Below are positions 21,514 to 44,637 of a stretch of 64,000 nucleotides of DNA, piece after piece; positions within the stretch are counted from its first letter, which is position 1; each line of letters opens with the position of its first letter. The stretch is from Bryobacteraceae bacterium (GTDB lineage: Bacteria > Acidobacteriota > Terriglobia > Bryobacterales > Bryobacteraceae), in assembly GCA_035516375.1 (NCBI GenBank), contig DATJAK010000022.1, positions 42,116 through 106,115 on the forward strand, written 5' to 3'. The notes under the pieces were generated by a model. It worked only from the letters and a program-made list of their open reading frames with translations, did not search any database and was not told where the DNA came from. The position numbers and the translations under genes were made by a program.

Positions 21514-23232
21514 TTACCGGCCAATGCCGCCTGCGAGACAGGGATGCCCGCTTCCCTCGCGCAGAGTCACGACGCGATCCTCACCAATCTGTTTCCAGGA
21601 GTCACACCCGCCCGCCGGCCAGCGGACCTGTATCCGGTCCACTGTGGCCGATTTGCCCAACCCGAAGTGGACTCGTGGGTCGTTGGCTGACAGGTAGCTG
21701 CCATCACCTCTGACCCAGCGCTGGATAGATGTCCCGTCTTTCCGAAACAACTCGACCACGCTGCCGTACCCGGATCGGTTGGAACGTACTCCTTCGAGAC
21801 GAACCTGGATCCAGTGCCCGCGTTCCGGCACCGTATTCAGCAACAGGCGAGCCGGACCGTTATTGTTAGTCACCAGAATGTCGATTCCGCCGTCGTTGTT
21901 GACGTCGCCGAATACCGCCGCGCGGCTAACATCAAGGTGGTCGAAGGCTGGCCCGGCCAAAGCCGTCACATCCTCGAACCCCTTTCCCTTACCCAAATTG
22001 CGCAGCAGCAGATTGCGCTGCCGGTATGGGAAGAGGTCGCCTAGTTGCGTCGCCATGGCGAGTACCGCGCCATTGGCGGCGAACAGGTCCAGCAAGCCGC
22101 GATTTTCCATGTCCAGCAGACCGACTCCGAAGCCGGTGTACGGCAGGGAAAAGTGAAGCAACCCAGTCTGCGCCGTGGAATCGGTGTAATCGCCGCGCGG
22201 CTGCCGCTGGAACAGAGTGAATCCTTCATTGGGAAGATTGGTGATTACCACAGCCTCCCCGCCATCGCCGTACAAGTCGCCGGCCGCTACGCCCATTCCC
22301 GCCCGGGCGCGGCCGTCCGCAGCGAAGGCTAGCCCGCGCATGAGGCCCGCTTCCTTGAATACCCGGCCCTTTTGACTCCCTTCATTCAGCCAAAGATGAT
22401 TGGCGGCGCCATCGTTAGCGACCACGAAGCTCGGCCAGCCATTCGAACCGAAATCGCCTGTCAGGATGCCAAGCCCGGGTCCACGCGCCGCGTTCAGGCC
22501 AACCGCGGAAGTGACGTCTTCAAACCGGCCGTTGCCCAGGTTGCGATAGAGCTGGGTGACGGTCCGGTCGAAGTTCTCGGGCCCGCAATAGTCTCGACGG
22601 CCCTCCGGCCCATAGCAGTTCCTGGGATAGAACTCCAGGTAGTGGACAACCACCAGATCGAGCCAGCCATCGCGATCGTAGTCAATGAACGCGGCGCTGG
22701 TGGACCATCCGGACGATTCCACCCCGGCGGTCTTAGTCACGTCAGTGAAGGTGCCGTTCCCGTTGTTGTGATAGAGAACGTTGTGGCCATAATTCGTTAC
22801 GTACAGATCGGTGTAGCCGTCGTTGTCATAGTCTCCGGCAGCCACACCCATGCCAAAATCACTGTGCCCAACACCCGCCGCTTCGGTGACGTCGGTGAAG
22901 GAGAGTTTTCCGCTTTCGACCAGGTTATTCCGGAACAGCCGGTTCCCGGGCCTCCAGCCTGCCGGCAAAGGGACCAGCGGCTTGCCTTGCGGAATTGCCG
23001 GAGCGCCCTGGACCAGATAAACATCCAGGTCCCCGTCATTGTCATAGTCGATCAGGGCAGCGCCCGATCCCATGATTTCCGGTAAACGAAAGTCTCCCGT
23101 CGCGCCGGAAAACTGCCAGAAGTCGAGCCCGGTCTGCCTGGCGACGTCTGCGAAGAGGGGAGTTGGATGACGAGAAGATCTGCAGGAGAGCGAGAGCGCA
23201 GCAAACAGAAGCAGCACTGCTCCCGATTTCAC
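21514..23232 (-). CDS. CRTAC1-family protein (FG-GAP/VCBS repeats + ASPIC/UnbV domain), lipoprotein-like signal
   Basis: 572 aa with a GTG start. It has repeated DYDNDGDLD / DYDNDGYTD / DYDRDGWLD / DVNNDGGID calcium-binding FG-GAP loops and a C-terminal UnbV-like block (NRSGYGSVVEL...SYLSANDPRVHFGLG...VRWPAG). Confidence 0.88.
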   Translation of the reverse strand: MKSGAVLLLFAALSLSCRSSRHPTPLFADVARQTGLDFWQFSGATGDFRLPEIMGSGAALIDYDNDGDLDVYLVQGAPAIPQGKPLVPLPAGWRPGNRLFRNNLVESGKLSFTDVTEAAGVGHSDFGMGVAAGDYDNDGYTDLYVTNYGHNVLYHNNGNGTFTDVTKTAGVESSGWSTSAAFIDYDRDGWLDLVVVHYLEFYPRNCYGPEGRRDYCGPENFDRTVTQLYRNLGNGRFEDVTSAVGLNAARGPGLGILTGDFGSNGWPSFVVANDGAANHLWLNEGSQKGRVFKEAGLMRGLAFAADGRARAGMGVAAGDLYGDGGEAVVITNLPNEGFTLFQRQPRGDYTDSTAQTGLLHFSLPYTGFGVGLLDMENRGLLDLFAANGAVLAMATQLGDLFPYRQRNLLLRNLGKGKGFEDVTALAGPAFDHLDVSRAAVFGDVNNDGGIDILVTNNNGPARLLLNTVPERGHWIQVRLEGVRSNRSGYGSVVELFRKDGTSIQRWVRGDGSYLSANDPRVHFGLGKSATVDRIQVRWPAGGCDSWKQIGEDRVVTLREGSGHPCLAGGIGR

Positions 23233-23273
23233 GTGATCAGCATTACATGCGCATGATATGCTGTCAACAATTC

Positions 23274-24680
23274 ATGAAACGGGGTGCGGCGTTCACGGTC
23301 ACAACGTTGGCCGCGCTGCTGGCGTGGTCCTGCGCGGGTCCGGTTCCGCCTGTTCCCGCAGTAACGCTGGAAGGCATGGACACCGAGGTGCGCGCCGTTG
23401 TCCAGGCGGCTCATCAGCAAGCGGCGGCGCAACCCTCCAGCGGCCAGGCATCGGGGCGTCTGGGGATGGTGCTGCACGCGCACTCGCTGTATCAACCGGC
23501 GATGCTCTCCTATCAGCGCGCGATTCGTCTGGAGCCGAAGGAGTTCGCCTGGCGATACTACCTGGCGTTGGTGCTTCAGCAAATATCGCAGCCGGACAAG
23601 GCACTGGAGGCCTTTTCGGCCGCGCTGCGCATCCGTCCGGACTACGCTCCCGCAGTTCTGAGGCGTGGGGACCTGCTGTTCCAGATGGGGCGTTTCCAAG
23701 AGAGCGCTGCCGCATATGAATCGGTACTGGCGAAGGATCCAGCTTCGGCTGACGCACTCTACGGTTTGGGGCGGGTACGCTATGCACAGCACGATATGTC
23801 CGCCGCTGAAGATCTCTACCGCCGTGCTTCGCAGGCTTATCCAAAATTCGGCGCCGCCTATTACGGACTAGCCATGGCGGGCCGGAGTCTGGGACATGAC
23901 GCAGACTCGGCGAAGAACTTCGAGCTGTCCAAACGCTTCACGGGTGACCATCCTTCCACTTCGGACCCGCTGCTGAGCCAGATGGGGGCGCTGACCACGG
24001 GCGTTTTCCGCAGGTTCGAGCAAGCCAACTCACTGGCCAAGCAGGGAGACATGGAGGAGGCTGCGCGGCTGAATGAAGAAGTGCTGGCGCGGGATCCGGA
24101 CAACCTCTCCGCGTTACTGAACCTTTTATACCTGGCGCGGTTTCTGAACCGCTTCGATAATCAGGTGGACACCCTCTATTCGCGGGCCCAGCGGATCGAC
24201 CCGCGGGTTCCGCTCATTTACGACTACTACGGTGTCGTCATGGTTCGGGAAGGCAAGTACGAAGCGGCCATGGCCGCGCTCCGGAAAGCCCTCGATCTGC
24301 GGCCGAATTACGCCGAACCGCACAAGTGGATGGGGGAAGTTCTGGAACGGCAGAACCAGATCGCCGGCGCTATCGAGAATTATCAGCTGGCGCTGGCCGC
24401 GGAGCCTTCCGACCGCGCAACCCAAATGAAACTGTGGTGGGACCTCATCATCCAGGGCCGCGGCCGCGAGGCAATTCCACAATTGATCCCGGCGATCCAG
24501 ATTGACGATATGTTTACGCCCATGCGACTGGTCCTGTTGGGCGAGGCTTATCGAACCACGGGCGAATTCGGAAAATCGCGGCAGTATCTGGAGCAAGCGC
24601 GAAGCCGCGTGCGCAACCAGGGTCCGCCGGATCTTTTGGCGCAGATTGAACACGAGTTGAAGGAGCTACCGCAACCTTGA
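23274..24680 (+). CDS. TPR-repeat lipoprotein
   Basis: The start was moved to the ATG at 23274 (MKRGAAFTVTTLAALLAWSCAG, which has a lipobox). TPR units occur throughout. Confidence 0.8.
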   Translation: MKRGAAFTVTTLAALLAWSCAGPVPPVPAVTLEGMDTEVRAVVQAAHQQAAAQPSSGQASGRLGMVLHAHSLYQPAMLSYQRAIRLEPKEFAWRYYLALVLQQISQPDKALEAFSAALRIRPDYAPAVLRRGDLLFQMGRFQESAAAYESVLAKDPASADALYGLGRVRYAQHDMSAAEDLYRRASQAYPKFGAAYYGLAMAGRSLGHDADSAKNFELSKRFTGDHPSTSDPLLSQMGALTTGVFRRFEQANSLAKQGDMEEAARLNEEVLARDPDNLSALLNLLYLARFLNRFDNQVDTLYSRAQRIDPRVPLIYDYYGVVMVREGKYEAAMAALRKALDLRPNYAEPHKWMGEVLERQNQIAGAIENYQLALAAEPSDRATQMKLWWDLIIQGRGREAIPQLIPAIQIDDMFTPMRLVLLGEAYRTTGEFGKSRQYLEQARSRVRNQGPPDLLAQIEHELKELPQP

Positions 24681-27640
24681 GCCGACTGCTGTCGAGCTCC
24701 GCGAGGTGCGCGCACCTGACACTCGCCATGGCATTGCTGATGCTCGTGGCATGCACCCGGCGAATTGACGAAGATCGGTTAAGCGAGCGTCGCAACCTGG
24801 GCACCGCGTTCTACGAGAATCCCACCACCCACCAGGAAGCCGTCCGGGAGTTTCAACAAGCACTGCAACTGGCGCCGGACTCCGCCCGAGAGAAGTTGAA
24901 CTATGCCCTGGCGTTGCTGCGGGCAGGCCGCGAAGAAGAAGGGGTATCGCGGCTTCAGGAGGTGCAGCGCCAGGATCCTTCGCTTCCGCACACCTGGTTC
25001 AATCTGGGAATCTATTACAAACGGCGGGGAGATGTCACTCGTGCCATCACACAATTCGAAGGCATGGTCGCGCGGGCGCCAGAGGAGCCCGTCGCACACT
25101 ATCAGCTGGGTACTCTGTATCGGCAGGTGAAACGCAATGCGGAGGCGCGTACCGAGTTCGAGCGGGCTGCGGCATTGAACCCACTGCTGGCCGCCGCGCG
25201 GTATCAGCTTTACGATCTGAATCGGGTGGCTGGAAATGTCGAGCAAGCCAAGCTCTACCTGGCGGATTTTCAACGCATCCAGCAAGCGCAAAAAGGCTCG
25301 GTGATACCGGAGGACGTCGAGTGGTGCGCTTACGCGGAGATCTATAACCCGCCGGAGTATCGTAACGAAGCGGCGGCGTCGCCGGAACTCACTCTTACCG
25401 ACAAACGGCTGCCCGGCAGTGTCGATCCTAAGACGGCCGGAATGACCCTGATCGACCTGGCGGGTGTCGGGCGAACCGATCTGCTGGTATGGTCGTCGCA
25501 GGGGATTCGAGTGTTTCGCGGCGGACAACAGATCGCCGAAGACATCGGCCTGGACGGATTGACCGGGATTCTGGACGTTGCTCCCGGCGATTTCGACAAC
25601 GACGGCCTGATGGATCTGTGTGTGCTCACCGCCGCCGGCCCGACGCTGTACCGCAACGCTGGAGGCAAATTTGTGCGCCAGCAAGCGCCCCTTCCCGACC
25701 GGCGTTTCGACAAGGCGGTATGGCTCGATTACGATCACGATTACGATCTCGACCTGGTCTTGCTGGGAGAACAACCGGCACTGATGCGCAATCAAGGAAC
25801 CGCCGGCTGGGCTGATCACACGGACGATTTCCCGTTTGTGAAGGGCACGGCCACGAACGCCCAAAAAATGCGCACGGTACCCGATAGCAAAGCGTTCGAT
25901 TTGGCGGTATTTTACCTGGATCGGATGCCGGTACTCTATCGCGATCAGCTTGGCGGCCGCTACACCGCCGAGGCATTTCCGGGAAAGCCCCCGGACGTAA
26001 CACGCACCGAAGTGGATGCCGACTTCGATGCTGACGGCCGGATGGACCGCGCGAGGATCGATCCGGATGGCAGCCTTCACCTTTTGCTCAACCGGAGCGG
26101 AAATGATCGTCGCTGGATCGGTATTCAGCTTAAGGGCGTGCGCAGTCTAAAGCTGGCGCAAGATGCCCTGGTGGAGATCAAGGCCGGCACTCTTTACCGG
26201 CGCCAGTTCTATACGGGGGTCCCGCTGCTGTTTGACGCGGGAAACAATACCACAGTCGACGCGGTTCGCATTACGTGGCCCAATGGGCTGATTCAGAACG
26301 AAATCCGCCAGGCGACGAATCGAACTCATGCTTATGTGGAAGCACAACGACTGTCCGGCTCCTGTCCCATGATCTGGACGTGGAACGGGCATGCGTTCGA
26401 ATTCATCACCGATGTCCTGGGGGTGGCTCCGCTGGGCGCCAGCGATGGTGATGGAAGCTACTTCCCGGTGGATCACGTTGAGTACGTGCAGATTCCCGGC
26501 GGGGCGCTCGAGACCGACCGGAATCATGCCGGTCACTATGAAGTGCGCATCACTGAAGAGCTGAGCGAGGTGTCGTACCTAGACCAGGTCCAGCTTTATG
26601 CGGTGGATCAGCGCGCCGGCACGGAAATCTTCACCAACGAAAAGTTTAAGGGGCCGCCTTATCCGGAATTCCGGCTGTTCGAAGTGGAGCGGCGGATTTA
26701 TCCCGTGGCCGCGCGCGATGACCAAGGCGCGGACGTGTTGCCGCGGTTAATCGCTAAAGACGGCCGGTATCCCGATCAGTTCAGGCGGTCCGAGACCGGT
26801 GTGGCGGAGTTGCACACATTGGAGCTGGATTTCGGAAGCGCGGCGCCATCCGGCAAAGCCATTCTATTACTCAACGGCTGGGTTGATTGGCCCGATGGCA
26901 GCACTTTCCGCAGAGCCTCGCAGGAGTCGGCGGCGGGGTTGGTGATGCCATACCTCGAGGTGCAGGACGGAAGCGGCCAATGGAAGACCGTGAACCAGGA
27001 CATGGGTATGCCCGCCGGCAAGCCCAAGACAATCGTGGTTCCTGTAGAGTTTCTGTCGGCAAGCCGCAAGATCCGGATCGTCACTAACCTATGCGTATAT
27101 TGGGACGAGATTTTCTTGAGTGAGGGGATTTCCAATACGAGCCGGGAGCCAAAGCTGATACCGCTGATTTCGGCCGATTTACACTTTCGGGGATTCTCGG
27201 AATCGCGTATCGACCCGCGCCGCAAACAACCGGACACGTTTTTTTACGGCCAGGTTTCTCCAACCTCTTTCTGGAATCCCACACCGGGCATGTATACAAG
27301 ATACGGCTCGGTGGAGAGCTTGCTCCGCGACGTGGACGACCAGCTCGTGATCATGGGCTCGGGCGACGAAGTTCGGCTCCAGTTCGACGCGGGAACTCTG
27401 GACGAGCTCCGGGCGGGATGGCGCCGCGACTACCTGCTCAAAGTGGACGGCTGGGCTAAGGATCGTGACCCGAATACGGCGTTTTCTTCGAACGTGAAGC
27501 CCCTGCCTTTTCACGGTATGTCACAGTATCCGTATTCGGCCAAAGAGCATTTCCCCAACGACGCCTTGCATGATGAGTATCAACGCACCTACAATACACG
27601 TCCGGCGCTGGTGTTAATCCGGCCGTTGGAGGGACGATGA
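24677..27640 (+). CDS. large TPR + FG-GAP/VCBS + ASPIC/UnbV protein with an uncharacterised ~450-aa C-terminal region
   Basis: 987 aa. It has a lipoprotein-like signal (LLMLVAC), N-terminal TPRs, FG-GAP loops (DFDNDGLMD, DYDHDYDLD, DFDADGRMD) and a UnbV-like block (NDRRWIGIQLKG...RITWPNG). A conserved-looking tail follows, starting SGSCPMIWTWNGHAFEF. The start is either TTG at 24677 (which overlaps the upstream stop) or ATG at 24728. Confidence 0.8.
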   Translation: MSRLLSSSARCAHLTLAMALLMLVACTRRIDEDRLSERRNLGTAFYENPTTHQEAVREFQQALQLAPDSAREKLNYALALLRAGREEEGVSRLQEVQRQDPSLPHTWFNLGIYYKRRGDVTRAITQFEGMVARAPEEPVAHYQLGTLYRQVKRNAEARTEFERAAALNPLLAAARYQLYDLNRVAGNVEQAKLYLADFQRIQQAQKGSVIPEDVEWCAYAEIYNPPEYRNEAAASPELTLTDKRLPGSVDPKTAGMTLIDLAGVGRTDLLVWSSQGIRVFRGGQQIAEDIGLDGLTGILDVAPGDFDNDGLMDLCVLTAAGPTLYRNAGGKFVRQQAPLPDRRFDKAVWLDYDHDYDLDLVLLGEQPALMRNQGTAGWADHTDDFPFVKGTATNAQKMRTVPDSKAFDLAVFYLDRMPVLYRDQLGGRYTAEAFPGKPPDVTRTEVDADFDADGRMDRARIDPDGSLHLLLNRSGNDRRWIGIQLKGVRSLKLAQDALVEIKAGTLYRRQFYTGVPLLFDAGNNTTVDAVRITWPNGLIQNEIRQATNRTHAYVEAQRLSGSCPMIWTWNGHAFEFITDVLGVAPLGASDGDGSYFPVDHVEYVQIPGGALETDRNHAGHYEVRITEELSEVSYLDQVQLYAVDQRAGTEIFTNEKFKGPPYPEFRLFEVERRIYPVAARDDQGADVLPRLIAKDGRYPDQFRRSETGVAELHTLELDFGSAAPSGKAILLLNGWVDWPDGSTFRRASQESAAGLVMPYLEVQDGSGQWKTVNQDMGMPAGKPKTIVVPVEFLSASRKIRIVTNLCVYWDEIFLSEGISNTSREPKLIPLISADLHFRGFSESRIDPRRKQPDTFFYGQVSPTSFWNPTPGMYTRYGSVESLLRDVDDQLVIMGSGDEVRLQFDAGTLDELRAGWRRDYLLKVDGWAKDRDPNTAFSSNVKPLPFHGMSQYPYSAKEHFPNDALHDEYQRTYNTRPALVLIRPLEGR

Positions 27641-30408
27641 CCACATCTAACCGGCGATGGGCGGGCGTGGCTTTGGTGGTGCTGATCCTGAACAGCGGCT
27701 ACCTCGCGGGTTTTCCTCGACCGACCATCTTCTACATGGGCAACGTGCTGCTGCACCTTGTAGTGGGACTGGTCCTGATGGCGGTCGCGATCCTCGTGAG
27801 CAAACGGTATCGCCGCGAAAGCGCAGTATTCCTGGCTGCGGGTCTGCCCGGCCTCTATCTGGCGGTGGGCGGCAATACCTTGGATCATCGTTGGATACTG
27901 TGGCTGCACATTTTGCTGGCTGTCGTGGCAGTGGCAGCGATCGCGTGGCGCGTGGCGCTGGCGCCGTCTGTCCGGGCAGGGCATGGCTTCGCCCTACGAA
28001 CTCTCAGAGCTGCAGTTGCGGTTGCCCTGCTGATCGCGATCGCGTTGCCGGCTTCCAGTTTCCTGTACCGGAGATGGCGTCCGGATGCCCGCGAGCGGAT
28101 CGCCAATCCGGCTGCGCCGCCGCTGTCCATGGATCAAGAAGGCGCCGGAGAGCACTCGCCGTTTGCGCCTTCTTCCGCGCAAACCACTACCGGGAAAATC
28201 ATTCCGTCGAACTTCTTTATGGATTCGGAAGCCTGCGGCGAGTGTCACCGGGATATTTACCAGCAGTGGAAGAGCTCCATGCATCACTTCGCTTCTTTCA
28301 ACAACCAGTTCTACCGGAAATCCATCGAGTACATGCAGGATGTGACGGGCACGCGCTCGAGTAAATGGTGTGCGGGATGCCACGATCACGCCGTTTTCTT
28401 CAATGGCCGTTTCGACCGGCCGATGCGAGAGCAGATCGACACCCCAGAGGCGCAGGCCGGGCTGGGATGCATGTCATGCCACGCCATCGTTCACGTGGCA
28501 AGCACCATGGGCAATGCGGATTTCACAGTTGAGTATCCACCCCTGCACGAAATCGCCTCCAGTCATAACCAGTACCTGCGAGCGATGGACTCCTTTCTCA
28601 CCTACCTGAATCCTCAGCCGCACCGCCAAACCTTCATGAAGCCATACATGCGCCAGGCTGAGTTTTGCGCCGCCTGTCACAAGGTGCACTTGGATGTTCC
28701 GGTGAATGACTACCGTTGGGTGCGCGGTTTTAACGATTACGACAACTGGCAGGCGAGCGGCGTCTCGGGGCAAGGCGCCCGCTCCTTTTACTACCCCGAG
28801 AAGAACATGGCTTGTGCCGATTGCCATATGCCGCTGGTGCCTTCACGCGATCCAGGCAATCATGACGGTAAGGTGCATTCGCACCGCTTCCCCGCCGCCA
28901 ACATGGCCGTGGCAGAGGCCAACCAGGATCAGGCGCAGATGGACGCCACCGAAAAATTCCTGAAATCGGGCTTTATCACGGTGGATATTTTTGCGGTCTC
29001 TCCGGCGGACGAGAGTAAAACGCAGACACGCATGATACGGCGCGGCGATAGTGTACAGGCGAACTCGACGTTCGCCGCCGGCGAAGAAACTGACGTGACG
29101 AGCGCCGGTCTCATTCGGGATGTCGGCAAAGTGACAGCACCGGTGGATGTGGCCGGGGCGGCATTGGCGCCGGGAAGTACAACGCGCGTGGACGTGGTGG
29201 TGCGCACGCGAAAGATCGGCCACTTTTTCCCGGGCGGAACGGTGGACGCGTTCGATGTGTGGCTGGAACTGGAAGGCAGGGATGCGCAAGGGCGGGTCAT
29301 CTTCTGGAGCGGGAATGTGGAAGATCATGGAAAGGGGCCGGTAGAGCCGGGTGCGCACTTCTATCGCTCGTACCAACTCGACGCCGCTGCTAATCCCATT
29401 AACAAGCGCAATGCCTGGCAAGCCCGGAGCCTGCTCTATGTGAGGCTGATCCCGCCAGGAGCTGCCGACGTGGCACACTACCTGCTGAAAGTACCGAAAA
29501 CCGCCCGGGGCCCTATTCATTTGACCGCGCGGCTGAACTATCGGAAGTTCTCGTGGTACTACACGCAATTCGCGTACGCAGGTCAGCCTAAGCCGGGCCA
29601 GGATCCCGCTCTGCTCGCGCGCGATCGCAATGGCTTCGAATATGAGTTCGCGCGCGCCTCGATTCCGGCGAATGTTTCGGGAAAGATCCGCGGCCGGATT
29701 CCCGATGTGCCCATCGTCACGCTGGCCCAATCGAATGTCACGATTCCCTTGGGTGCGCCCGCATGGTCACCCGTGGTGCGCAAGCAGGATCGGGAGCGGT
29801 GGAATGACTGGGGCATCGGGCTCTTGCTGCAGGGCGACCTGAAAGGGGCGGAATACGCCTTTCAGAAAGCCACCGAGGCTGAGCCGGAATATGCCGATGG
29901 ATGGCTGAATGTGGCGCGGGCGCTGATTCAGGAAGGTGAAACCGATCGGGCCAAACCTTATATTGAAAAGGCGCTCGCGATCAACCCGGGGTTGGGACGC
30001 ACCTGGTTCTTCCAGGCCGCCATTCAAAGAGCCGACGGCGACTACGACGCGGCATTGCATTCGCTCGAGGTGGTGCGCGCGAAGTATCCGCGCGACCGCG
30101 TGGTCCTCAACCAGATCGCCCGTATTCTCTTCCTGAAACGCGAGTACGCCGCAGCGGTAGAAGTGCTGAAGCAGGTGTGCGACATCGATCCTGAAGATGT
30201 AACCATGCACTACACGCTGATGTTGTGTTATCGAGGCTTGGGCGACACCGCAAACGCTGCCCGGGAAGAGGCGCTGTTTCGCCGTTTTAAGGCCGACGAA
30301 GCTTCGCAGTCCATCACCGAGCAGCGGCGCATGATCAGCCCGGAAGACAACAATGAGCGGCAGCAGATTCACGATCACGAAAGCGCGGTCAGGAGCGATC
30401 TGCCATGA
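27637..30408 (+). CDS. membrane-anchored pentaheme c-type cytochrome (cytochrome c554-like multiheme region) with C-terminal TPRs
   Basis: 923 aa with ~4 N-terminal TM helices. It has five CxxCH motifs (CGECH, CAGCH, CMSCH, CAACH, CADCH) and a C-terminal TPR block (AEPEYADGWLNVARALIQEG...). Its ATG overlaps the upstream TGA (ATGA). Confidence 0.85.
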   Translation: MTTSNRRWAGVALVVLILNSGYLAGFPRPTIFYMGNVLLHLVVGLVLMAVAILVSKRYRRESAVFLAAGLPGLYLAVGGNTLDHRWILWLHILLAVVAVAAIAWRVALAPSVRAGHGFALRTLRAAVAVALLIAIALPASSFLYRRWRPDARERIANPAAPPLSMDQEGAGEHSPFAPSSAQTTTGKIIPSNFFMDSEACGECHRDIYQQWKSSMHHFASFNNQFYRKSIEYMQDVTGTRSSKWCAGCHDHAVFFNGRFDRPMREQIDTPEAQAGLGCMSCHAIVHVASTMGNADFTVEYPPLHEIASSHNQYLRAMDSFLTYLNPQPHRQTFMKPYMRQAEFCAACHKVHLDVPVNDYRWVRGFNDYDNWQASGVSGQGARSFYYPEKNMACADCHMPLVPSRDPGNHDGKVHSHRFPAANMAVAEANQDQAQMDATEKFLKSGFITVDIFAVSPADESKTQTRMIRRGDSVQANSTFAAGEETDVTSAGLIRDVGKVTAPVDVAGAALAPGSTTRVDVVVRTRKIGHFFPGGTVDAFDVWLELEGRDAQGRVIFWSGNVEDHGKGPVEPGAHFYRSYQLDAAANPINKRNAWQARSLLYVRLIPPGAADVAHYLLKVPKTARGPIHLTARLNYRKFSWYYTQFAYAGQPKPGQDPALLARDRNGFEYEFARASIPANVSGKIRGRIPDVPIVTLAQSNVTIPLGAPAWSPVVRKQDRERWNDWGIGLLLQGDLKGAEYAFQKATEAEPEYADGWLNVARALIQEGETDRAKPYIEKALAINPGLGRTWFFQAAIQRADGDYDAALHSLEVVRAKYPRDRVVLNQIARILFLKREYAAAVEVLKQVCDIDPEDVTMHYTLMLCYRGLGDTANAAREEALFRRFKADEASQSITEQRRMISPEDNNERQQIHDHESAVRSDLP

Positions 30409-32084
30409 ATCGGCGAAGGGGGGCGGTTTGCCTGGTGCTGGCCCTCGCGCCGGTATTGGTGGTGCTCGGCGCCAGCGAACCGTCAGGCAGCGTGGTCTTC
30501 ACTGATATAACCGCGCCGGCAGGCATTCACTTTGTCCACAACGCCGGGCGGACCGGCAAGAAATATCTGCCCGAAACGCTCGGATCCGGCTGCGCGTTTG
30601 TGGACCTTGATGGCGATGGCTGGCCCGACATTCTGCTGCTCAACGGCAAGGATTTCGCACCCCGCGGACGCCGTTCGCTTCCCGCCCTGTATCACAACAA
30701 CCACGACGGCACGTTCACCGACATCACGGCCGGCAGCGGCCTGGATATCGAAATGTACGCGCTCGGAGTCGCGGTTGGGGACTATGACAATGACGGCCGC
30801 GAAGACGTCTATGTGACCGCGCTAGACGGCGATCACCTTTTTCATGGTGAAGGCAACGGAAAGTTTCGCGACGTCACCGAAGCCGCCGGAATTCACAATG
30901 CCAGCTTCGGAGCGAGCGCGGCGTGGCTCGACTACGACCGCGATGGCAAGCTCGATCTATTTGTCGCGAACTACGTTCAGTGGAGCACTAAGAACGATCT
31001 TTGGTGCTCCTTGGACGGCGCTACGAAATCATACTGTACGCCCGAATCGTACAAGGGAACCCGCAGCCGGCTCTTCCACAATCTGGGCGGCGGGCGCTTC
31101 GAAGATGTTGCGGCAGCGGCTGGCGTGGGCGACCCCACCAGCAAATCGCTGGGAGTCACGGTGCTCGATTACAACGGTGATGGCTGGCCCGACATCTTCG
31201 TAGCCAATGACACACAGCCGAACAAACTATATCGCAACTTGAAGAACGGTACTTTCCAGGAAGAGGGCATAGGCGCTGGAGTAGCCTACGGAGAGGATGG
31301 AGTGGCGCGTGGCGCCATGGGGGCCGACGCCGCCGACTACGACGGCAGCGGACGCCCACATTTGTTGGTGGGCAATTTTTCGAATCAGATGCTCGGCCTT
31401 TACCACAACGAAGGCAACGGTCTTTTTGTGGATGAGGCGCCCACCTCGAGCGTGGGCCGCGCCAGCCTGTTGTCGCTCACGTTCGGAGTATTCTTCTTCG
31501 ACTACGACCTGGACGGGCGCCTTGACATCCTGGCCGCCAACGGCCACATTGAGGACGAGATCGGGCGCGTTCAGCCCAAAGTGAGTTATCAAGAGACGCC
31601 GCTACTGTTTCGCAACCTGGGCAATCACAAATTCGAAAACGTCAGCAGCCGGATGGGCGCGGCGTTCGCCCGGCCAATAGTGGCGCGCGGCGCTGCTTAC
31701 GCCGATTTCGATCACGACGGGGACCTGGACGTATTGGTCTCCACCAACAACGGGCCGGCCTGTCTCCTGCGCAACGATGGCGGCAATCGGAACGCGTGGT
31801 TGAGCGTCCGGCTGGCAGGAAGCAAATCCAATCGCGACGGCATCGGCGCAGTCGTGCGCGTGGCGAGTGCTTCCGGAAAGCAGTGGAACATGGTTCGCAG
31901 CGGATCCAGTTATTGTTCCCAGAGCGATCTGAGCCTGGTTTTCGGGCTTGGCCGGGATGCCACCGCGGTGGTGGAAGTGGAGTGGCCGAGCGGTACCCGG
32001 CAGCGCTTCGAGAACATCAGAGCAAATCAGCGGATCACGATCCACGAAGCCGGTGGCGTGATTCCGAACGGAGGGAGGTCGTGA
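30405..32084 (+). CDS. CRTAC1-family protein (FG-GAP repeats + ASPIC/UnbV)
   Basis: 559 aa with a signal peptide. It has the loops DLDGDGWPD, DYDNDGRED, DYDRDGKLD, DYNGDGWPD, DYDLDGRLD and DFDHDGDLD, plus the UnbV block NRDGIGAVVRV...SYCSQSDLSLVFGLG...VEWPSG. It is a paralogue of 21514-23232. Confidence 0.9.
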   Translation: MNRRRGAVCLVLALAPVLVVLGASEPSGSVVFTDITAPAGIHFVHNAGRTGKKYLPETLGSGCAFVDLDGDGWPDILLLNGKDFAPRGRRSLPALYHNNHDGTFTDITAGSGLDIEMYALGVAVGDYDNDGREDVYVTALDGDHLFHGEGNGKFRDVTEAAGIHNASFGASAAWLDYDRDGKLDLFVANYVQWSTKNDLWCSLDGATKSYCTPESYKGTRSRLFHNLGGGRFEDVAAAAGVGDPTSKSLGVTVLDYNGDGWPDIFVANDTQPNKLYRNLKNGTFQEEGIGAGVAYGEDGVARGAMGADAADYDGSGRPHLLVGNFSNQMLGLYHNEGNGLFVDEAPTSSVGRASLLSLTFGVFFFDYDLDGRLDILAANGHIEDEIGRVQPKVSYQETPLLFRNLGNHKFENVSSRMGAAFARPIVARGAAYADFDHDGDLDVLVSTNNGPACLLRNDGGNRNAWLSVRLAGSKSNRDGIGAVVRVASASGKQWNMVRSGSSYCSQSDLSLVFGLGRDATAVVEVEWPSGTRQRFENIRANQRITIHEAGGVIPNGGRS

Positions 32085-32677
32085 AACCGATGTTTCTTCC
32101 CGGAGTGGAAAACAATCCACAACCCGGGCCTTACCGTGAAGTCCTGCAGCCCATGCGGGCGGCTGGCAAGGAATATCCACAGATTTGGCATCTGTTTGCT
32201 TTTCGCCCGCAGGCCACGGAGCATCTGGCGAGGTTCACTCAAGAGGTGATGCGCGGACCGGCGCCGATTGCTCCCGGCATTCGCGAATTGATCGCGGCCT
32301 ACACGTCGTACCGCAACGATTGCCCATTTTGACTGCACGCGCATGCCGCGGTCGCGGCAGAGTTGCTGGGCAGTGAAGAGTTGGTGTGGAGTGTGATTCG
32401 GGACCTGGAGAATTCAGCACTCCCGGAGAAAGAGAAGGCCCTTTTCCGCTTCATTGATAAGGTGAACGGCGATTCTCCTCGCATTGCGCCTTCCGACATG
32501 CAACCGTTGTACGCCGTGGGTTGGGATGATGAGGCCATCTACTTTGCGATTACAGTCTGCGCCTTGTTCAATTTCTATAATCGTTGGATCGATGCGACCG
32601 GTGTGCACGCGCTATCGCCCGAGGCTCATCGGGAAGGGGGCAAGCGCACGGCACAGCACGGCTATGTTCGAAAGTGA
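32081..32677 (+). CDS. AhpD/carboxymuconolactone-decarboxylase-family peroxidase-related protein with an in-frame TGA at 32330-32332 (candidate selenocysteine, CxxU)
   Basis: Two same-frame track ORFs (ending at 32332 and starting at 32363) join across the TGA to give ...SYRNDCPF[TGA]LHAHAAVAAELLGSEEL.... This matches the C-x-x-C-x-x-x-H AhpD motif. The start is GTG at 32081 (overlapping the upstream TGA, with GGAGGGAGG upstream) or ATG at 32090. Confidence 0.65.
32333..32373 (+). promoter_or_regulatory. candidate bacterial SECIS hairpin
   Basis: The upper stem pairs U32344-C32349 with G32354-A32359 (6 bp) and closes a GGUC loop at 32350-32353. A lower stem with bulges is possible (C33/G68, G35/C66, C36/G65, A37/U64). 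The loop G-U lies at nt 22-23 counted from the U of UGA. Confidence 0.55.
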
Positions 32678-36012: not shown

Positions 36013-37425
36013 ATGCTTTCGCAGGAAACGGCAGCCCAGATCCCACAAATTCAGTTTTGGCCCATTGAGCGACTGGTCTTCTACGCTCGCAATCCCCGCA
36101 AGAACGATGCCGCGGTCGACCGCATGTGCAGCAGCATCCGGGAGTTCGGCTTTAAGTGCCCAGTGCTGGCTCGCAGCGATGGAACCGTGGTGGACGGCCA
36201 CCTTAGAATTAAGGCAGCGCGCCAGTTGGGATCGTGGCCCGGTGGCGACACCACCGCAATCCCAGTGATCCTCTGCGATGAGTGGACGCCCGCGCACGTG
36301 AAGGCATTCCGCCTCCTGGTGAACAGATCCGGAACCTGGGCGGATTGGGATCTGGAACTGCTCGGCCCAGAGCTCGCGGACTTGAAAGACCTCGCCTATG
36401 ACGTGTCGTTAACAGGTTTCGACGCACGAGAGATCGACGCTCTCCTCGCATCCCCGGACGGCGACGAGAAAGCCAACGCCACGCCGCCACTGCCGGAGGT
36501 CGCGGTGACTCAGCCAGAAGATCTGTGGTGCTGTGGTCCACATCGCGTCTTGTGTAGCGATGCGACGCAAGAAAGCGCCACATCGCGGCTCTTTGCACGA
36601 ACGGTCCCGTTCCTGATGGTGACTGACCAACCATATGGCGTGAGCGTGGATCCAACCTGGCGGGAGGAGGCGGGTCTCAACCCCCGAACGGTGCAGGGCG
36701 GCAAGGTCGCTAACGACGACCGGGTGGATTGGTCACAGGCCTGGCAGCTATTCCCTGGGGACGTCGCTTATGTCTGGCACGCGGGGATCTATGCCGGAGA
36801 AGTTGCCGCTTCGCTGTTCGGCAGCGGCTTCCAGATTCGGGCACAAATCATTTGGCGAAAACAACACTTCGTAATCAGCCGCGGCGCTTACCATTGGCAG
36901 CACGAACCTTGCTGGTATGCGGTGCGCAAAGGGAGCTCCGCTCACTGGCGTGGGGATCGGACACAATCGACAGTGTGGGACGTTAGCAATCTGGGCTCTT
37001 TCGGCGGTGACCGGAGCGAGGAGAAGACGGGCCACGGCACGCAGAAGCCGGTCGAGTTGATGCGCTGCCCGATCCTGAATCATACGGAGCGTGGTGATGC
37101 GGTGTATGACCCCTTCTTGGGATCGGGTACGTGCATGGCTGCTGCCGAGTTAACCGGTCGCCTGTGTTATGGGATGGACATCGACCCGCGGTACGTTGAT
37201 GTCGCGGTACTTCGCTGGCAAGCCCTAACGGGGAAGGAGGCAACGCTGGCTGATGGGCCTTACGCCGGCGCCACGTTCGAGCACGTGAAAGAAGGGCGAC
37301 TTCTGGCTGCCGAAGATGCGATTAAGGATGATTGCGAGCGGCTACTGGACGAGCGGGCATGCGAGCAGGTGGCCGATCAGCCCGTCACGCATCATGCACC
37401 CAATGAAGGCACGGGGGGCGCCTAG
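36013..37425 (+). CDS. ParB-like nuclease domain fused to a DNA methyltransferase (beta-class N6A/N4C type)
   Basis: 470 aa. The N-terminal ParB/Srx-like block (YARNPRKNDAAVDRMCSSIREFGF..PVLA..DGTVVDGHLR) is followed by the catalytic DQPYG (DPPY-like) motif and then the SAM-binding DPFLGSGT motif. Confidence 0.85.
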   Translation: MLSQETAAQIPQIQFWPIERLVFYARNPRKNDAAVDRMCSSIREFGFKCPVLARSDGTVVDGHLRIKAARQLGSWPGGDTTAIPVILCDEWTPAHVKAFRLLVNRSGTWADWDLELLGPELADLKDLAYDVSLTGFDAREIDALLASPDGDEKANATPPLPEVAVTQPEDLWCCGPHRVLCSDATQESATSRLFARTVPFLMVTDQPYGVSVDPTWREEAGLNPRTVQGGKVANDDRVDWSQAWQLFPGDVAYVWHAGIYAGEVAASLFGSGFQIRAQIIWRKQHFVISRGAYHWQHEPCWYAVRKGSSAHWRGDRTQSTVWDVSNLGSFGGDRSEEKTGHGTQKPVELMRCPILNHTERGDAVYDPFLGSGTCMAAAELTGRLCYGMDIDPRYVDVAVLRWQALTGKEATLADGPYAGATFEHVKEGRLLAAEDAIKDDCERLLDERACEQVADQPVTHHAPNEGTGGA

Positions 37426-37886
37426 TGGGGGCTCGTGGGCCTGCTCCTAAGCCGACCGCACTTGTGCTGTTGGAAGGGAACCCGGGCAAGCGGCCGATCA
37501 ATCACGCCGAGCCACAACCTCGGCTCAAGACACCGCGGTGCCCAGACTATCTGGACGAGGAAGCCAAGAACGAGTGGAAGCGGCTCGTCCGGATCCTGCG
37601 TCATATGAAACTCCTCACGGAGGCCGACTACATCTCGCTCGGCAATCTCTGCCAAGCATATTCGACGATGATCAAGGCCCAGATGAAGCTCTCCGAAAGC
37701 GGGTTGCTCTTCAAGACCGGTTCCGGCTACGTGCAGCAGAGTCCCTTGCTCGGTGTCGTAAACACCTGCATGGAAACCATTACACGCTTGTGCCGAGAAT
37801 TCGGATTGACGCCCTCGAGCCGCTCTCGGATGCAGTTGCTCTCAACGGAGAGGGAACAATCCAGCGACGGCGTGTTGGATTTCTGA
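37425..37886 (+). CDS. phage terminase small subunit, P27 family
   Basis: 153 aa. The N-terminus GARGPAPKPTALVLLEGNPGKRPIN and the tail ..LCREFGLTPSSRSRM are characteristic. Its GTG start overlaps the upstream TAG. Confidence 0.85.
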   Translation: MGARGPAPKPTALVLLEGNPGKRPINHAEPQPRLKTPRCPDYLDEEAKNEWKRLVRILRHMKLLTEADYISLGNLCQAYSTMIKAQMKLSESGLLFKTGSGYVQQSPLLGVVNTCMETITRLCREFGLTPSSRSRMQLLSTEREQSSDGVLDF

Positions 37887-37889
37887 CGT

Positions 37890-39455
37890 GTGCCTTTCAG
37901 TGATGAGCGCGCCGATCGAGCGGTTAACTTCATCGAGCACTATCTCCACCACACGAAGGGACAGTTCGTCGGCCAGCCCTTCCTTCTGCGCGATTGGCAG
38001 AAGCAACACGTCCGAGAGATCTTTGGACGGCTCAATGACGACGGGAGCCGTCAGATTCGCCAGGTCTACTGGGAAATTCCCAAAAAGAACGGAAAAAGTG
38101 AAATCGCAGCCGCCATTGCCCTTACCTTGCTCTACGCGGACCGAGAGCCCGGAGCCGAGATCTATGGAGCTGCCGTAGATCGGGATCAAGCCGGCATCGT
38201 GTTCACGGTTGCCGCGGCGATGGTTCGATTCAACGCTAGACTCGCTCGGCGATCTAAAATCATCGATTCCAGCAAACGCATTGTTGTACCAGAGATGGGC
38301 AGCTTCTACCGTGCGCTATCGGCCGACGTAGGTGGCAAGCACGGGTTTAACAGCCACGGCGTGATCTTCGATGAAATTCACGCGCAGCGGGACCGGCGGC
38401 TCTGGGAGGTACTGACGTTCGGCGCCGGCGACGCACGCACCCAACCTCTGGTGTTCGGAATCACGACGGCCGGTATCCCCGGAGAGAGCCCGGTTGCGGA
38501 GGAACTGCACGAATACGCGGATCAGATCATCCGCGGCGTTATTCCTCCGGACCCGACTTTCTACCCGGTGATCTACGCGGCGCCGCAGGACGCCGATTGG
38601 ACCAGCGAAGAGGTGTGGCGAGCCTGCAATCCGGCGCTCGGCGACTTTCTGAACCTGGAGTCGGTCCGGTCAGCGTGTGAACGTGCAAAGCGCGTACCCA
38701 GCGAACAAAACAGCTTTCGGCGGCTGCGGCTGAATCAGTGGGTCAAACAGGAAACCCGGTTCATTGACATGGCCGATTGGGATGCCTGCTCGGCTCCTAT
38801 CGATCTGACTGCAGCGAAGGACCTGACCTGGTACGCAGGGCTCGACCTGTCGACCAAGCTGGATATTACGGCCCTGGTGCTTGTGGCGAAGGACGACGGT
38901 GGAGTCTTCAACCTGCTGCCCTTCTTCTGGCTGCCCGAAGATAACATGCAGGCTCGACCGCACCAAGAGAGCAGCAAATATCGTCTGTGGGCGGCCAAAG
39001 GCCTCATCACCCTCACGACCGGCAACGTCGTAGATTTCACGGCGGTTCGCAGAAGATTAAACGAGTTGCGAGACCAGGCAGGCCTCAGTATCCAACAAGT
39101 GGCGTATGATCCGTGGTCGGCCACTCAACTTGCGCAGCAACTCCAAGAGGACGGATTCCAAATGGTTGAGGTGGGGCAGACCTATCGGCACCTTTCGGAG
39201 GCCACAAAGGAACTCCAGAGCAGCATCGTGCACCGCAGCGTCCGTCATGGTGGGAACCCGGTGCTGCGCTGGATGGCCGACTGCATGACGGTCAAAAGCG
39301 ACATCAACAGCAACGTGCGACCAGTCAAGCCTGACCGACTAAAATCGTCCAAGCGAATTGACGGAATAGTGGCAGCCATCATGGGTTTGAGTCGTTCGAT
39401 GGTCGATGACCAGTCGCGCTCTGTGTACGAAGAGCGTGGAATCCGGATGCTTTAG
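37890..39455 (+). CDS. phage terminase large subunit
   Basis: 521 aa. It has a Walker-A-like region near IPKKNGKSE, a DE motif in VIFDEIHAQ, and a C-terminal nuclease-like region with typical Terminase_1 organisation. Confidence 0.85.
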   Translation: MPFSDERADRAVNFIEHYLHHTKGQFVGQPFLLRDWQKQHVREIFGRLNDDGSRQIRQVYWEIPKKNGKSEIAAAIALTLLYADREPGAEIYGAAVDRDQAGIVFTVAAAMVRFNARLARRSKIIDSSKRIVVPEMGSFYRALSADVGGKHGFNSHGVIFDEIHAQRDRRLWEVLTFGAGDARTQPLVFGITTAGIPGESPVAEELHEYADQIIRGVIPPDPTFYPVIYAAPQDADWTSEEVWRACNPALGDFLNLESVRSACERAKRVPSEQNSFRRLRLNQWVKQETRFIDMADWDACSAPIDLTAAKDLTWYAGLDLSTKLDITALVLVAKDDGGVFNLLPFFWLPEDNMQARPHQESSKYRLWAAKGLITLTTGNVVDFTAVRRRLNELRDQAGLSIQQVAYDPWSATQLAQQLQEDGFQMVEVGQTYRHLSEATKELQSSIVHRSVRHGGNPVLRWMADCMTVKSDINSNVRPVKPDRLKSSKRIDGIVAAIMGLSRSMVDDQSRSVYEERGIRML

Positions 39456-39736
39456 CAAGCTCGCGCGACCCCAGTCAGTCGAGCTTCCTTGCATGGCCTG
39501 ACTTCCTAACCTTGTTTCGTGGCTCGGCCCAACCGGAGTCTCTCTGACTGACCCGAGATAACTGGCCGGTTAATGCCACTCTCCGGTTAGGTGCGTCAGA
39601 CGTCAGTTGACGTGATGCGGACATATCAGGATCTATCGTAGATTGCGGCCTTTTCAGGGCCGAACTCAAACCAACCTAACCCACTGATTCCACGAGACGA
39701 CCCAACGAGAAAACGCCGATTTTATCCCTATTTGTT

Positions 39737-39765
39737 GGAACAGGAATGGAACAGGTCTGGAACAG
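39737..39765. repeat. three direct GGAACAG(G) repeats with 11-nt periodicity
   Basis: GGAACAGG at 39737-39744, GGAACAGG at 39748-39755 and GGAACAG at 39759-39765. They lie in the non-coding gap just 3' of the RT-Toprim stop. Confidence 0.6.
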
Positions 39766-39793
39766 CCACCCCCGGGAGAGCGCAGCCCGCATC

Positions 39794-41359
39794 CTACGGC
39801 ACGGTTGCCGCTTGTCCTGCGAGGATCGCCGCGTGCTGTTTGATGATGTCCTCCAGGATGGCGAGGAGCGGCTGAAATCCCGCAAAGCTAATCGTGCTCG
39901 CCTTTGCCTTCACGACCTGTTCGGCGAAAATGTGTTTGCCGAAATGCTGGTTCTTATCGAAGCCATTGCTGTCATCGTTGAAGGTCTTGCCGCCGACCTG
40001 GGTGGCTTTCGTTGCGGCATCAAAGAAATCCTCGATCTTCGATTCAGTGACTCCAGGAGACAATGGCGTTCGCATCGCGTAGAGGTTTCGGGCGACGTGC
40101 AGGTACGGTTCGGTTCCCTTCACCCTGTTTTTCGTCGCCTTACCAATGGCGCTCCGGATGTCTTTAGCGCCCGCATCGTTGTCATACAGGATAATCACGG
40201 GGTGTTTCTGTCCCGGCGCGTGAAAGTGGTCCGTATCCTTCTTGTAGGTGCCGATGAAGTGCGCGATGAGCGCGCTTCCACCGGAGGAGAGTCCGAGAAT
40301 GCGCCCTGTGCTCGTTTGGGGATAGTTGTACAGGCGCACGTTGAGCGTGATCTTGCCCTGCTGGTCGATGGTGGCGAGCTGAGGAAACTGCGCCGCTAGG
40401 CTGCGGATCGCGTGCTTGAGGTAAACGTTGTCTGTCTTCCCTTCGCAAATAATCACTGGTCGGGCTGCCATGTAGAAGTCCTTGTAGAGCAGGAAGCGTC
40501 GGTACATGGGCTGTTTCTTTTCCCCGTCGTGACGGTCAATGCTGTCGATGAATCCGAGGCGACCGTGCAGCTCATCGAGCGTGCCATCCCGATCCTCCAG
40601 GGTCACGACGCCGTTCTTGGTGACGGGCCCGACGAGCGTGAACTTACCCGTGGTGAAGAGATGGTGCACCATCGCTCGTACCTCTCGACGGTATTCGGTC
40701 CGCACGTTGATCTTCTGATTCACCACGAGCCCCGTGACCTCTTGTCGGGACATCCGGTACTGCATGCGCGTCTTGGTGGGGTTGATCCGGAATCCCGCGC
40801 GCGTGATCTGCCGCACGAGGGGCCGCGCTGGAGTCCAGACATGGGGGTTCGCGGGGTCTTGCTGCGCGATGTCCGGCGGGAATTCGTTCTTGTTCGTGGA
40901 GAACGTGAGATCGTCCGTATACCGGGAGTACGTACACCCCGCCCGCGAGACGAGCCGGAGGAGCTGCATGTCCATGATGTGTGCGATGAGGTTCGAGACG
41001 ACCGGGGAGCACGGGCTGCCTTGCGGAAGGGAGTTGTCGTCGCAAGCGATCTGCGCGAGGCCTGGATCGCAGCTGATCCCTTCCGCGGCGGCATGCGCGT
41101 TCTCATCACCGGCCCTCAGGGCTTCGAGCGGGTCGTGCAGTTCGACCCTAACGAGCAGCCTGCCGAGATTATCCGCCGAGTTCGCGAAACATTGGAAGAG
41201 TGATCCGGGCCGCCGTATCCGGACTTCTTGTGGAAACGGATAGGCGGAACCTTGCGCGTTTCCCGGTACCGATCGCGAGATTGTTTCCAGGTACACAGCA
41301 AACCATTCGCCGTAAGCCGTTCGTTTGACAGGTCGATTCGATCGGGATAGACTCGACAA
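39794..41359 (-). CDS. reverse transcriptase fused to a C-terminal Toprim domain (retron Ec67-like architecture); N-terminal RT motifs poorly recognisable
   Basis: 521 aa. RT motifs are LPQGSPCSPVVSN, YSRYTDDLTFS (YxDD) and the retron-type QEVTGLVVN. Toprim motifs are PVIICEGKTDNVYL (conserved Glu) and VIILYDNDAGAKD (DxD). Confidence 0.75.
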   Translation of the reverse strand: MSSLSRSNRPVKRTAYGEWFAVYLETISRSVPGNAQGSAYPFPQEVRIRRPGSLFQCFANSADNLGRLLVRVELHDPLEALRAGDENAHAAAEGISCDPGLAQIACDDNSLPQGSPCSPVVSNLIAHIMDMQLLRLVSRAGCTYSRYTDDLTFSTNKNEFPPDIAQQDPANPHVWTPARPLVRQITRAGFRINPTKTRMQYRMSRQEVTGLVVNQKINVRTEYRREVRAMVHHLFTTGKFTLVGPVTKNGVVTLEDRDGTLDELHGRLGFIDSIDRHDGEKKQPMYRRFLLYKDFYMAARPVIICEGKTDNVYLKHAIRSLAAQFPQLATIDQQGKITLNVRLYNYPQTSTGRILGLSSGGSALIAHFIGTYKKDTDHFHAPGQKHPVIILYDNDAGAKDIRSAIGKATKNRVKGTEPYLHVARNLYAMRTPLSPGVTESKIEDFFDAATKATQVGGKTFNDDSNGFDKNQHFGKHIFAEQVVKAKASTISFAGFQPLLAILEDIIKQHAAILAGQAATVP

Positions 41360-41364
41360 TCATC

Positions 41365-43729: not shown

Positions 43730-43781
43730 AACGGAAGCATTTGGACCTTACCTCTGCTCGGCGGGGACATCAAGGACGCCG

Positions 43782-44612: not shown

Positions 44613-44637
44613 GGCCAGATCCTCTTTTCCGGGAGTG

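Follow-up and report, generated by a model that had tools for sequence, protein, structure and literature searches.

Can a stop codon in the middle of a bacterial gene be a codon for selenocysteine (Sec)? The question is raised by a reading frame at positions 32081-32677 of a 64,000-nucleotide (nt) stretch of a Bryobacteraceae genome (Acidobacteriota; assembly GCA_035516375.1, contig DATJAK010000022.1, positions 42,116 to 106,115 of the forward strand), the whole of which is referred to below as the window. The frame, on the plus strand, opens with GTG 32081 and closes with TGA 32675-32677, and its only internal stop is TGA 32330-32332. An earlier reading of the letters alone (the original prediction) had proposed that this TGA is read through in a selenoprotein of the AhpD type. 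Comparison of the gene with its relatives now indicates that the in-frame TGA very probably encodes selenocysteine, giving an AhpD-like CxxU protein with the motif C81-P-F-U84, where U stands for Sec.

The gene and its annotation

Read through the TGA, the gene encodes a 198-residue protein containing the peptide YRNDC81-P-F-[TGA84]-L-H-A-H88. A Shine-Dalgarno-like run, GGAGGGAGG (32070-32078), lies just 5' of the GTG start, the same start that was used for the GenBank fragment HUI76587.1. An exact-sequence look-up in GenBank found the gene entered as a pair of hypothetical proteins (HUI76587.1 and HUI76588.1) that follow HUI76586.1 ('CRTAC1 family protein'), and the annotation of the gene in the source genome carries no selenoprotein label. 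The second of the two is really the C-terminal half of the protein begun by the first (Table 1). The stretch 32081-32677 is one intact gene, not two, and the claim in the original prediction that it would be mis-annotated as two fragments was borne out by these entries.

For the profile searches the stop codon of the window protein was substituted by Cys. The NCBIfam profile TIGR01926 ('peroxidase-related enzyme') matched residues 9-174 with 86.1 bits against a curated cut-off of 81.8, and the Pfam CMD profile (PF02627) matched residues 43-106 with 26.6 bits against a threshold of 23; both matches run across the stop. Weaker NCBIfam matches were obtained to AhpD_rel_CFYUT and to a YciW-related model, both of which are named '(seleno)protein'. 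Two further claims of the original prediction hold at this point: the TGA does fall at the second Cys of a C-x-x-C-x-x-x-H motif, and the open frame past it continues the same fold as its C-terminal half, the TIGR01926 match spanning the stop.

Conservation of the TGA and of the frame beyond it

Orthologues were collected at 160 loci, 80 of them on metagenome contigs and 80 in GTDB species representatives. They come from Bryobacterales, Bryobacteraceae, Solibacteraceae or Terriglobia metagenome-assembled genomes (MAGs), share 73-88% amino-acid identity and diverge by up to 38% at the nucleotide level; together with the window they form a set of 161 sequences. Codon 84 is TGA at every one of the 160 loci, never TGG or TGC. 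Downstream of it the frame is open for 112-122 codons in 160 of the 161 sequences, the remaining one leaving its contig, and no secondary stop or frameshift was found in the 160 orthologues. Stops or frameshifts at varying positions had been named beforehand as a sign of decay, and the orthologues have a TGA at one and the same codon in an otherwise intact frame. Entropy at the three codon positions is 0.42, 0.31 and 1.25 bits 3' of the TGA, compared with 0.49, 0.39 and 1.24 bits 5' of it, and amino-acid identity among the orthologues is 79% downstream compared with 74% upstream. Judged from these patterns, the TGA is maintained by selection and the downstream half is under purifying selection like the upstream half.

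The protein search returned about 2,900 homologues. Other Terriglobia relatives, at 55-72% identity, have C-x-F-C at the motif, and 93 more distant CxxC homologues have Cys at the aligned column. The alignment proposed with the original prediction therefore gives Cys at this column in more distant homologues and TGA in the orthologues.

Under one alternative explanation the TGA is a true stop, either in a pseudogene or between two independent small genes, and the hairpin described below is a by-product of alanine-rich coding. The way in which GenBank and other gene callers divide the region, into open reading frames (ORFs) of 83 and of 94-104 amino acids, agrees with this explanation, as do two properties of the hairpin that are taken up later, namely the self-complementarity of its Ala-Ala-Val-Ala-Ala codons and the poor score of its single-sequence fold. 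Against it stand the unchanging position of the stop in all 160 orthologues despite their divergence, the lack of any secondary stop or frameshift, the equal purifying selection in the two halves and the requirement of the family profiles for both of them. The hairpin itself adds that its covariation sits at synonymous sites and that it is lost where TGC replaces TGA in front of an identical peptide. The explanation is considered hardly credible.

A lineage-wide reading of TGA as Trp or Gly, as in genetic codes 4 and 25, has also to be weighed, for the closest database entries, P0001-P0011 and P0014-P0018, show Trp at the TGA column ('CPFW'). These entries are Joint Genome Institute (JGI) metagenome predictions from contigs of about 1 kb. 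The DNA of the 160 orthologues, which comes from the same collections, has TGA and not TGG, so that the Trp in these entries is an artefact; it is presumably a TGA mistranslated by a gene caller that was free to choose a TGA=Trp (code-4-style) model on short contigs. Against reassignment, TGA serves as the terminator of the window gene, of the overlapping upstream gene and of 36 of the 160 orthologues, and a search of the window turned up no further in-frame TGA that is credible. A changed genetic code is accordingly given next to no probability. Taken together, the conserved TGA, the selection downstream of it and the use of TGA as a normal stop exclude a pseudogene, a pair of genes and a reassigned code alike.

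A conserved hairpin downstream of the TGA

The second line of evidence for Sec is a hairpin of the selenocysteine insertion sequence (SECIS) type, numbered here with the U of UGA as nt 1. Its stem begins 11 nt past the TGA and consists of the pairs U15-A30, G16-C29, C17-G28, C18-G27, G19-C26 and C20-G25. Within the loop, G21-G22-U23-C24, the nucleotides G21 and C24 act as a seventh pair and leave G22-U23 (32351-32352) as an exposed dinucleotide. The hairpin is best described as a helix of 7 base pairs (bp) presenting two unpaired nucleotides, G22-U23. Stem, GGUC loop and the position of the G-U at nt 22-23 are all as the original prediction had drawn them (Table 1).

The helix 15-21/24-30 has no interruption in any of 144 distinct sequences and is 98.5% paired among them, compared with 28-82% and essentially no double changes in control registers slid by 1-3 columns. 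Both nucleotides of the loop-closing pair 21:24 are synonymous third positions, nt 21 of an Ala codon and nt 24 of a Val codon; the pair is A:U in 87 of these sequences and G:C in the other 57, and is never left open. A neighbour-joining tree of the 160 genes, for which the hairpin columns were left out of the alignment, requires 14 or more independent double switches between A:U and G:C, with no intermediates. Compensatory changes from C:G to U:A were also seen at pair 15:30, three times (the window has U:A), and at pair 18:27, in locus L135. In the first 79 distinct sequences there is hardly any variation at the third positions nt 15, 18 and 27, in contrast to the remaining third positions, which vary freely, and third-position entropy is 0.51 bits within the hairpin against 1.25 bits elsewhere. 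The loop variants in the 160 genes are AGUU (91), GGUC (61) and AGGU (8).

The hairpin is also rare behind other TGA triplets. When an equivalent hairpin was defined by at least 5 bp and a closed N-G-U-N loop with its G at nt 21-24, one was found at 20 of 32,320 other TGA triplets in 1.3 Mb of related DNA, compared with 152 of the 161 orthologous sites. RNAalifold supported the upper helix alone. An extended lower stem, present in the minimum-free-energy fold of the window, was rejected, as its pairs 4-6/42-44 are only 63% paired across the orthologues and the RNAalifold structure lacks it. At the level of sequence comparison these data are decisive: the hairpin is a conserved RNA structure, and its loop-closing pair gives the strongest signal.

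The hairpin in relatives with cysteine

The protein tree groups all 153 distinct Sec forms in one clade, within which a single Cys form is nested, P0013 (L163:2752). At this locus TGC replaces TGA and is followed by GCCGC-GAUU-GCGAC, which lacks the G-U and no longer forms an intact stem; P0013 is probably a Sec-to-Cys reversion with a decayed hairpin. A near neighbour, P0012 (L169:1750), has lost the first Cys and has the form T-Q-F-C. It retains the downstream peptide H-A-A-V-A-A-E, but its codons CAT GCT GCG GTG GCC GCC break pair 18:27 and the closing pair. Since the peptide is kept and the helix is not, the constraint on the RNA can be separated from that on the protein.

In more distant Cys-form relatives the full signature occurs at none of 10 CxxC sites in 8 further loci (6 distinct genes and paralogues). 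As far as sequences can tell, the hairpin goes with the TGA, and it is lost in the two closest Cys-bearing relatives (L163 and L169). The co-occurrence suggested as a check in the original prediction is thus seen, together with compensatory changes across the orthologues. With regard to gene number, two of the Cys-form relatives (L167:1-1636 and L168:1001-2176) have the gene in tandem arrays of 2-3 CMD-family paralogues, and a single copy was present at the Sec-form loci examined.

Protein family, fold and redox motif

The solved structures nearest in sequence are four 'uncharacterized peroxidase-related proteins' (2OYO, 2PFX, 3C1L and 2PRR) and the Deinococcus radiodurans AhpD 6K40; the C-x-x-C of these relatives aligns with C81 and residue 84 of the window protein. 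Full-length homologues of the window protein reach 83-84% identity. An AlphaFold2 model was available for the orthologue P0013, which is 72% identical to the window protein; it is all-helical, with a pLDDT (predicted local distance difference test) of 95.2. A Foldseek search with this model returned 6K40, 2OYO, 3C1L, 2PFX and 2PRR as the best PDB matches, with TM scores of 0.71-0.8. Profile and fold searches thus identify the gene product as a member of the AhpD-like 'peroxidase-related enzyme' family (TIGR01926, COG2128, CMD fold). The solved structures closest to it come from structural genomics and lack an established function, and the structure search showed that the fold is shared by the debrominase Bmp8, whose chemistry is unrelated.

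The predicted redox motif is E69-x11-C81-P-F-U84-x3-H88. Among 31 homologues E69 never varies, and conservation is at least 90% at both C81 and H88. The protein has no signal peptide and is expected to be cytoplasmic for that reason.

The same arrangement of residues is known from the AhpD of Mycobacterium tuberculosis, whose relay consists of Glu118, Cys130, Cys133 and His137 (PMC3141380). The E-x11-C-x2-C-x3-H spacing of that relay equals the spacing of E69, C81, U84 and H88. In structure, however, the M. tuberculosis protein matches only remotely (11-14% identity, with a Foldseek E of 0.05 or weaker), and the equivalent of its His132 is Phe83 in the window protein. No ahpC or peroxiredoxin gene was found among the window genes. 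The window protein is not an AhpC-partnered AhpD in the strict sense.

Relation to known AhpD-like selenoproteins

AhpD-like selenoproteins with a CxxU motif have been described from the Sargasso Sea and Global Ocean Sampling (GOS) metagenomes, where AhpD-like 1 (COG2128) was represented by 299 genes (PMC2398784). They have also been catalogued elsewhere (PMC9312934), and a 2026 review lists an 'AhpD-like protein, TIGR01926, CxxU' with an example accession (PMC13188914). The remark in the original prediction that the family is not new is therefore confirmed (PMC13188914, PMC2398784).

The gene in the window resembles these selenoproteins (TIGR01926 / COG2128 YciW) in its profile family, in its CMD/AhpD fold and in having Sec as the second residue of the CxxC motif, and in both cases Cys homologues outnumber the Sec forms. 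There are also differences. The clade found here belongs to terrestrial Acidobacteriota (Bryobacterales) and has the motif C-P-F-U, whereas the published counts are mainly marine; and it forms a single, nearly monophyletic Sec lineage that has been maintained in more than 150 species-level genomes. Every feature of the CxxU AhpD-like class that was tested appears in the gene when sequences are compared, that is, the UGA at the Cys column, the selection downstream of it and the co-occurring hairpin.

A literature search found no explicit description of the Bryobacterales Sec clade, and queries on Solibacter and soil selenoproteomes gave nothing relevant. Acidobacteriota are unmentioned in the main text of the BSepDB paper and of the 2026 review. 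As far as was found, this large and systematically mis-annotated Bryobacterales clade has previously gone unremarked.

Proposed decoding and catalysis

If the UGA at 32330-32332 is decoded as Sec, it would be recoded co-translationally. The mRNA 11 nt past the UGA would fold into a short, G+C-rich helix of 6-7 bp that exposes the G-U at nt 22-23, and this helix would tether SelB-GTP with Sec-tRNA(Sec) beside the ribosome paused on the UGA. Sec would then be inserted and 114 further codons translated up to the true stop, which is also a TGA. In the finished protein the selenolate of U84, placed in the first turn of a helix and assisted by an E69/H88 proton relay, may attack an oxidised substrate, for which a peroxide, a sulfenic acid or a disulfide are candidates. 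A selenenyl-sulfide with C81 would form and would then be reduced by the cellular thiol system. The protein is accordingly predicted, from its sequence, to be a cytoplasmic, all-helical CxxU selenol/thiol oxidoreductase with SelB-dependent insertion of Sec at residue 84.

Selenocysteine decoding weighed

The best known SECIS element for comparison is that of Escherichia coli fdhF. The loop of the fdhF element is GGUC. It shares with the hairpin in the window a G+C-rich stem, a helix that starts 11 nt past the UGA, and a loop of the form N-G-U-N' in which the outer two nucleotides are complementary (GGUC in the window). The AGUU and AGGU loops of other orthologues differ from it. In the E. coli model the upper stem-loop lies 11 nt from the UGA and has G23/U24 in its apical loop (PMC8659212). 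The essential G-U is at nt 22-23 here and at nt 23-24 in E. coli, the 5' arm here being one nt shorter; the lack of a bulged U17 accounts for this shift of one nucleotide from G23/U24 to G22/U23.

Several observations weigh against selenocysteine. The first concern the form of the hairpin: the bulged U17 of the E. coli element is absent from all 144 distinct sequences, and there is no conserved lower helix like the one that reaches the UGA in that element and brings it to about 40 nt in total. No Rfam family matches the hairpin, and a permissive Rfam scan of 32250-32450 gave chance-level matches only (an S4-Bacteroidia leader, E = 0.64, and a snoRNA, E = 5.8). The window hairpin folded as a single sequence has a z score of -1.26, which is not significant. 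Part of the potential to form a hairpin is supplied by the Ala-Ala-x-Ala-Ala codons, which are self-complementary, and several distant Cys forms still fold weakly at the same position for this reason. Such weak pairing of Ala codons was probably the raw material from which the SECIS element evolved.

The other observations concern the decoding machinery. In the 64-kb window ARAGORN found no tRNA and no Rfam family reached its gathering threshold, and none of 40 window ORFs scanned against NCBIfam was a SelA, SelB or SelD. The E. coli SelA, SelB and SelD sequences had no tblastn match in the 1.3 Mb of related DNA, and ARAGORN found no tRNA-Sec(UCA) in the 160 loci, two results that are uninformative for whole genomes. 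The Sec machinery of the source genome is assumed, the search having covered the window and related flanks. Support for it is indirect and comes from the pattern of selection described above and from the phylum-level record of selenoproteins in Acidobacteria (3 families, 4 proteins; PMC1794560 Table 2).

The hairpin data would look alike whether Sec or Cys were delivered, and it is conceivable that the UGA is recoded to Cys, at least under some conditions, by a tRNA-Cys of the SelC*/tRNA-ReC type acting through SelB or a SelB paralogue at the same hairpin. Both tRNASec-like tRNA-Cys and SECIS-dependent recoding of UGA to Cys have been published (PMC5389517, PMC13582414), and one of the orthologous loci, L159, has a tRNASec-like tRNA about 100 nt upstream of the gene. 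This 93-nt tRNA (L159:5809-5901, minus strand, Bryobacterales MAG contig CAVTWL010000009.1) was called tRNA-Cys (GCA) by ARAGORN and scored 45.5 bits against the Rfam tRNA-Sec family RF01852, below the gathering score of 47 (E = 5e-8). With its long variable arm, its D-stem of 6 bp and a U as discriminator base, it is similar to the SelC*/allo-tRNA classes that Mukai et al. described (PMC5389517). The SelC*/tRNA-ReC systems would act on the same kind of UGA-plus-SECIS site, and the L159 tRNA bears Cys identity elements. The anticodon of the L159 tRNA is, however, GCA and not UCA, so that it would not read UGA, and a tRNA of this type was found at only 1 of the 160 loci and not in the window. 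Cys would be cheaper to encode by TGC, but all 160 orthologues have retained TGA, with one reversion observed, and the CxxU form is a recognised selenoprotein class of the AhpD-like family. Recoding to Cys is therefore judged very unlikely.

A further idea combines the unusual hairpin with this tRNA. The Bryobacterales may have a lineage-specific, minimal SECIS element, consisting of an uninterrupted 7-bp helix with an extruded G-U di-loop and a closing pair that is A:U or G:C only, without a bulged U or lower helix, and some members may decode the UGA conditionally as Sec or Cys through an adjacent tRNASec-like tRNA-Cys. This is regarded as improbable; if true, such a minimal element would imply a mode of SelB recognition unlike the E. 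coli paradigm. Decoding as selenocysteine remains the preferred reading of the TGA.

Genomic context

The gene follows three plus-strand genes in the window (Table 1). The original prediction had described it as the last, start/stop-overlapping gene of a cytochrome/CRTAC1 operon. For the source genome this stands, the overlap being a 4-nt GTGA, and translational coupling to the CRTAC1 gene is real there. As a trait of the family it does not stand: a cluster of ASPIC/TPR, multihaem cytochrome and CRTAC1 genes lies near the orthologue in about 15-20 of the 160 loci, usually downstream of it, and clustering of the flanking ORFs of the 160 loci revealed no universal neighbour. The general statement that the protein is a dedicated component of a cytochrome/CRTAC1 system was rejected on these grounds.

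Table 1. Features of the AhpD-like gene and of the genes directly upstream (positions in the window).
Feature	Position	Strand	Remarks
TPR/FG-GAP protein	24677-27640	+	Upstream gene
Multihaem cytochrome c with TPR repeats	27637-30408	+	Upstream gene
CRTAC1-type FG-GAP/UnbV_ASPIC protein	30405-32084	+	559 amino acids; directly upstream gene
GTGA start/stop overlap	32081-32084	+	4 nt, with the upstream CRTAC1-family gene (its TGA 32082-32084); read from sequence
Complete AhpD-like (TIGR01926 / COG2128 / CMD-fold) gene, predicted selenoprotein	32081-32677	+	198 codons including the predicted Sec codon
HUI76587.1, N-terminal fragment	32081-32332	+	83 amino acids; exact-sequence look-up and retrieved sequence
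Predicted redox motif E69-x11-C81-P-F-U84-x3-H88	32285-32344	+	GAA 32285-32287, TGC 32321-32323, TGA 32330-32332, CAT 32342-32344
In-frame UGA, inferred Sec codon	32330-32332	+	Residue 84, second position of CxxC; TGA in 160/160 orthologous loci
SECIS-type hairpin	32344-32359	+	32344-32349 pairs with 32354-32359; loop GGUC 32350-32353
HUI76588.1, 'hypothetical protein'	32381-32677	+	98 amino acids; C-terminal half of the same protein; exact-sequence look-up and retrieved sequence

Scans of the window for TGA-split ORFs and for a TGA followed by a hairpin left only the site at 32330 as a credible selenoprotein gene. The TGA sites at 19837 (plus strand) and 44827 (minus strand) were rejected, as they lie in non-coding frames with a low G+C content at third codon positions.

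A number of other features were recorded in the window. Two divergent clusters, 17495-23232 (minus strand) and 23163-32084 (plus strand), are rich in genes typical of Acidobacteria. The minus-strand cluster encodes a CarboxypepD_reg/OMP beta-barrel protein (1279 amino acids) and a second CRTAC1-like FG-GAP/UnbV_ASPIC protein (572 amino acids), and the plus-strand cluster is an operon of TPR, TPR/FG-GAP, multihaem cytochrome and CRTAC1 genes that contains the recurring ASPIC/cytochrome module. Two adjacent genes for membrane/multihaem cytochromes are found at 11490-14642 (plus strand), one encoding a 566-amino-acid protein in which a c7-type trihaem domain is fused to a cytochrome b of the formate-dehydrogenase-gamma/Ni-Fe-hydrogenase type, the other a 480-amino-acid protein with an NrfH-like domain; a sigma-54 activator (9131-10474, minus strand) lies upstream of the pair. 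The region 36013-44693 may be a mobile or defence island. It contains a DNA methyltransferase-like gene (36013-37425), a tyrosine recombinase gene of the XerC/XerD type (42782-43729, minus strand), five ORFs in 37890-42132 without an NCBIfam match and a further unmatched ORF (43782-44693, minus strand). Genes connected with coenzyme F420 occur at 52883-54811 (plus strand), where CofE (F420-0:L-glutamate ligase, above cut-off) is followed by an LLM-class F420-dependent oxidoreductase.

Significance of the probable selenoprotein clade

No new mechanism is revealed by this gene; its value lies in the correction of annotation, in the selenium biology of soils and in a data set of SECIS covariation. 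The same TGA is present in the orthologues of at least 80 species-level Bryobacterales genomes, which could be mis-called in the same way, and analyses of proteomes, domains or pangenomes of these abundant soil bacteria miscount the gene. The set of 160 sequences offers a very clean natural example of a SECIS element within a coding sequence, with covariation at synonymous sites and decay after a Sec-to-Cys reversion, and could serve to train predictors of bacterial SECIS elements. The selenoproteomes of soils have been explored much less than those of the sea. A selenoprotein kept throughout a large soil and peat clade of Acidobacteriota would imply that these bacteria have retained the Sec machinery and depend on a supply of selenium.

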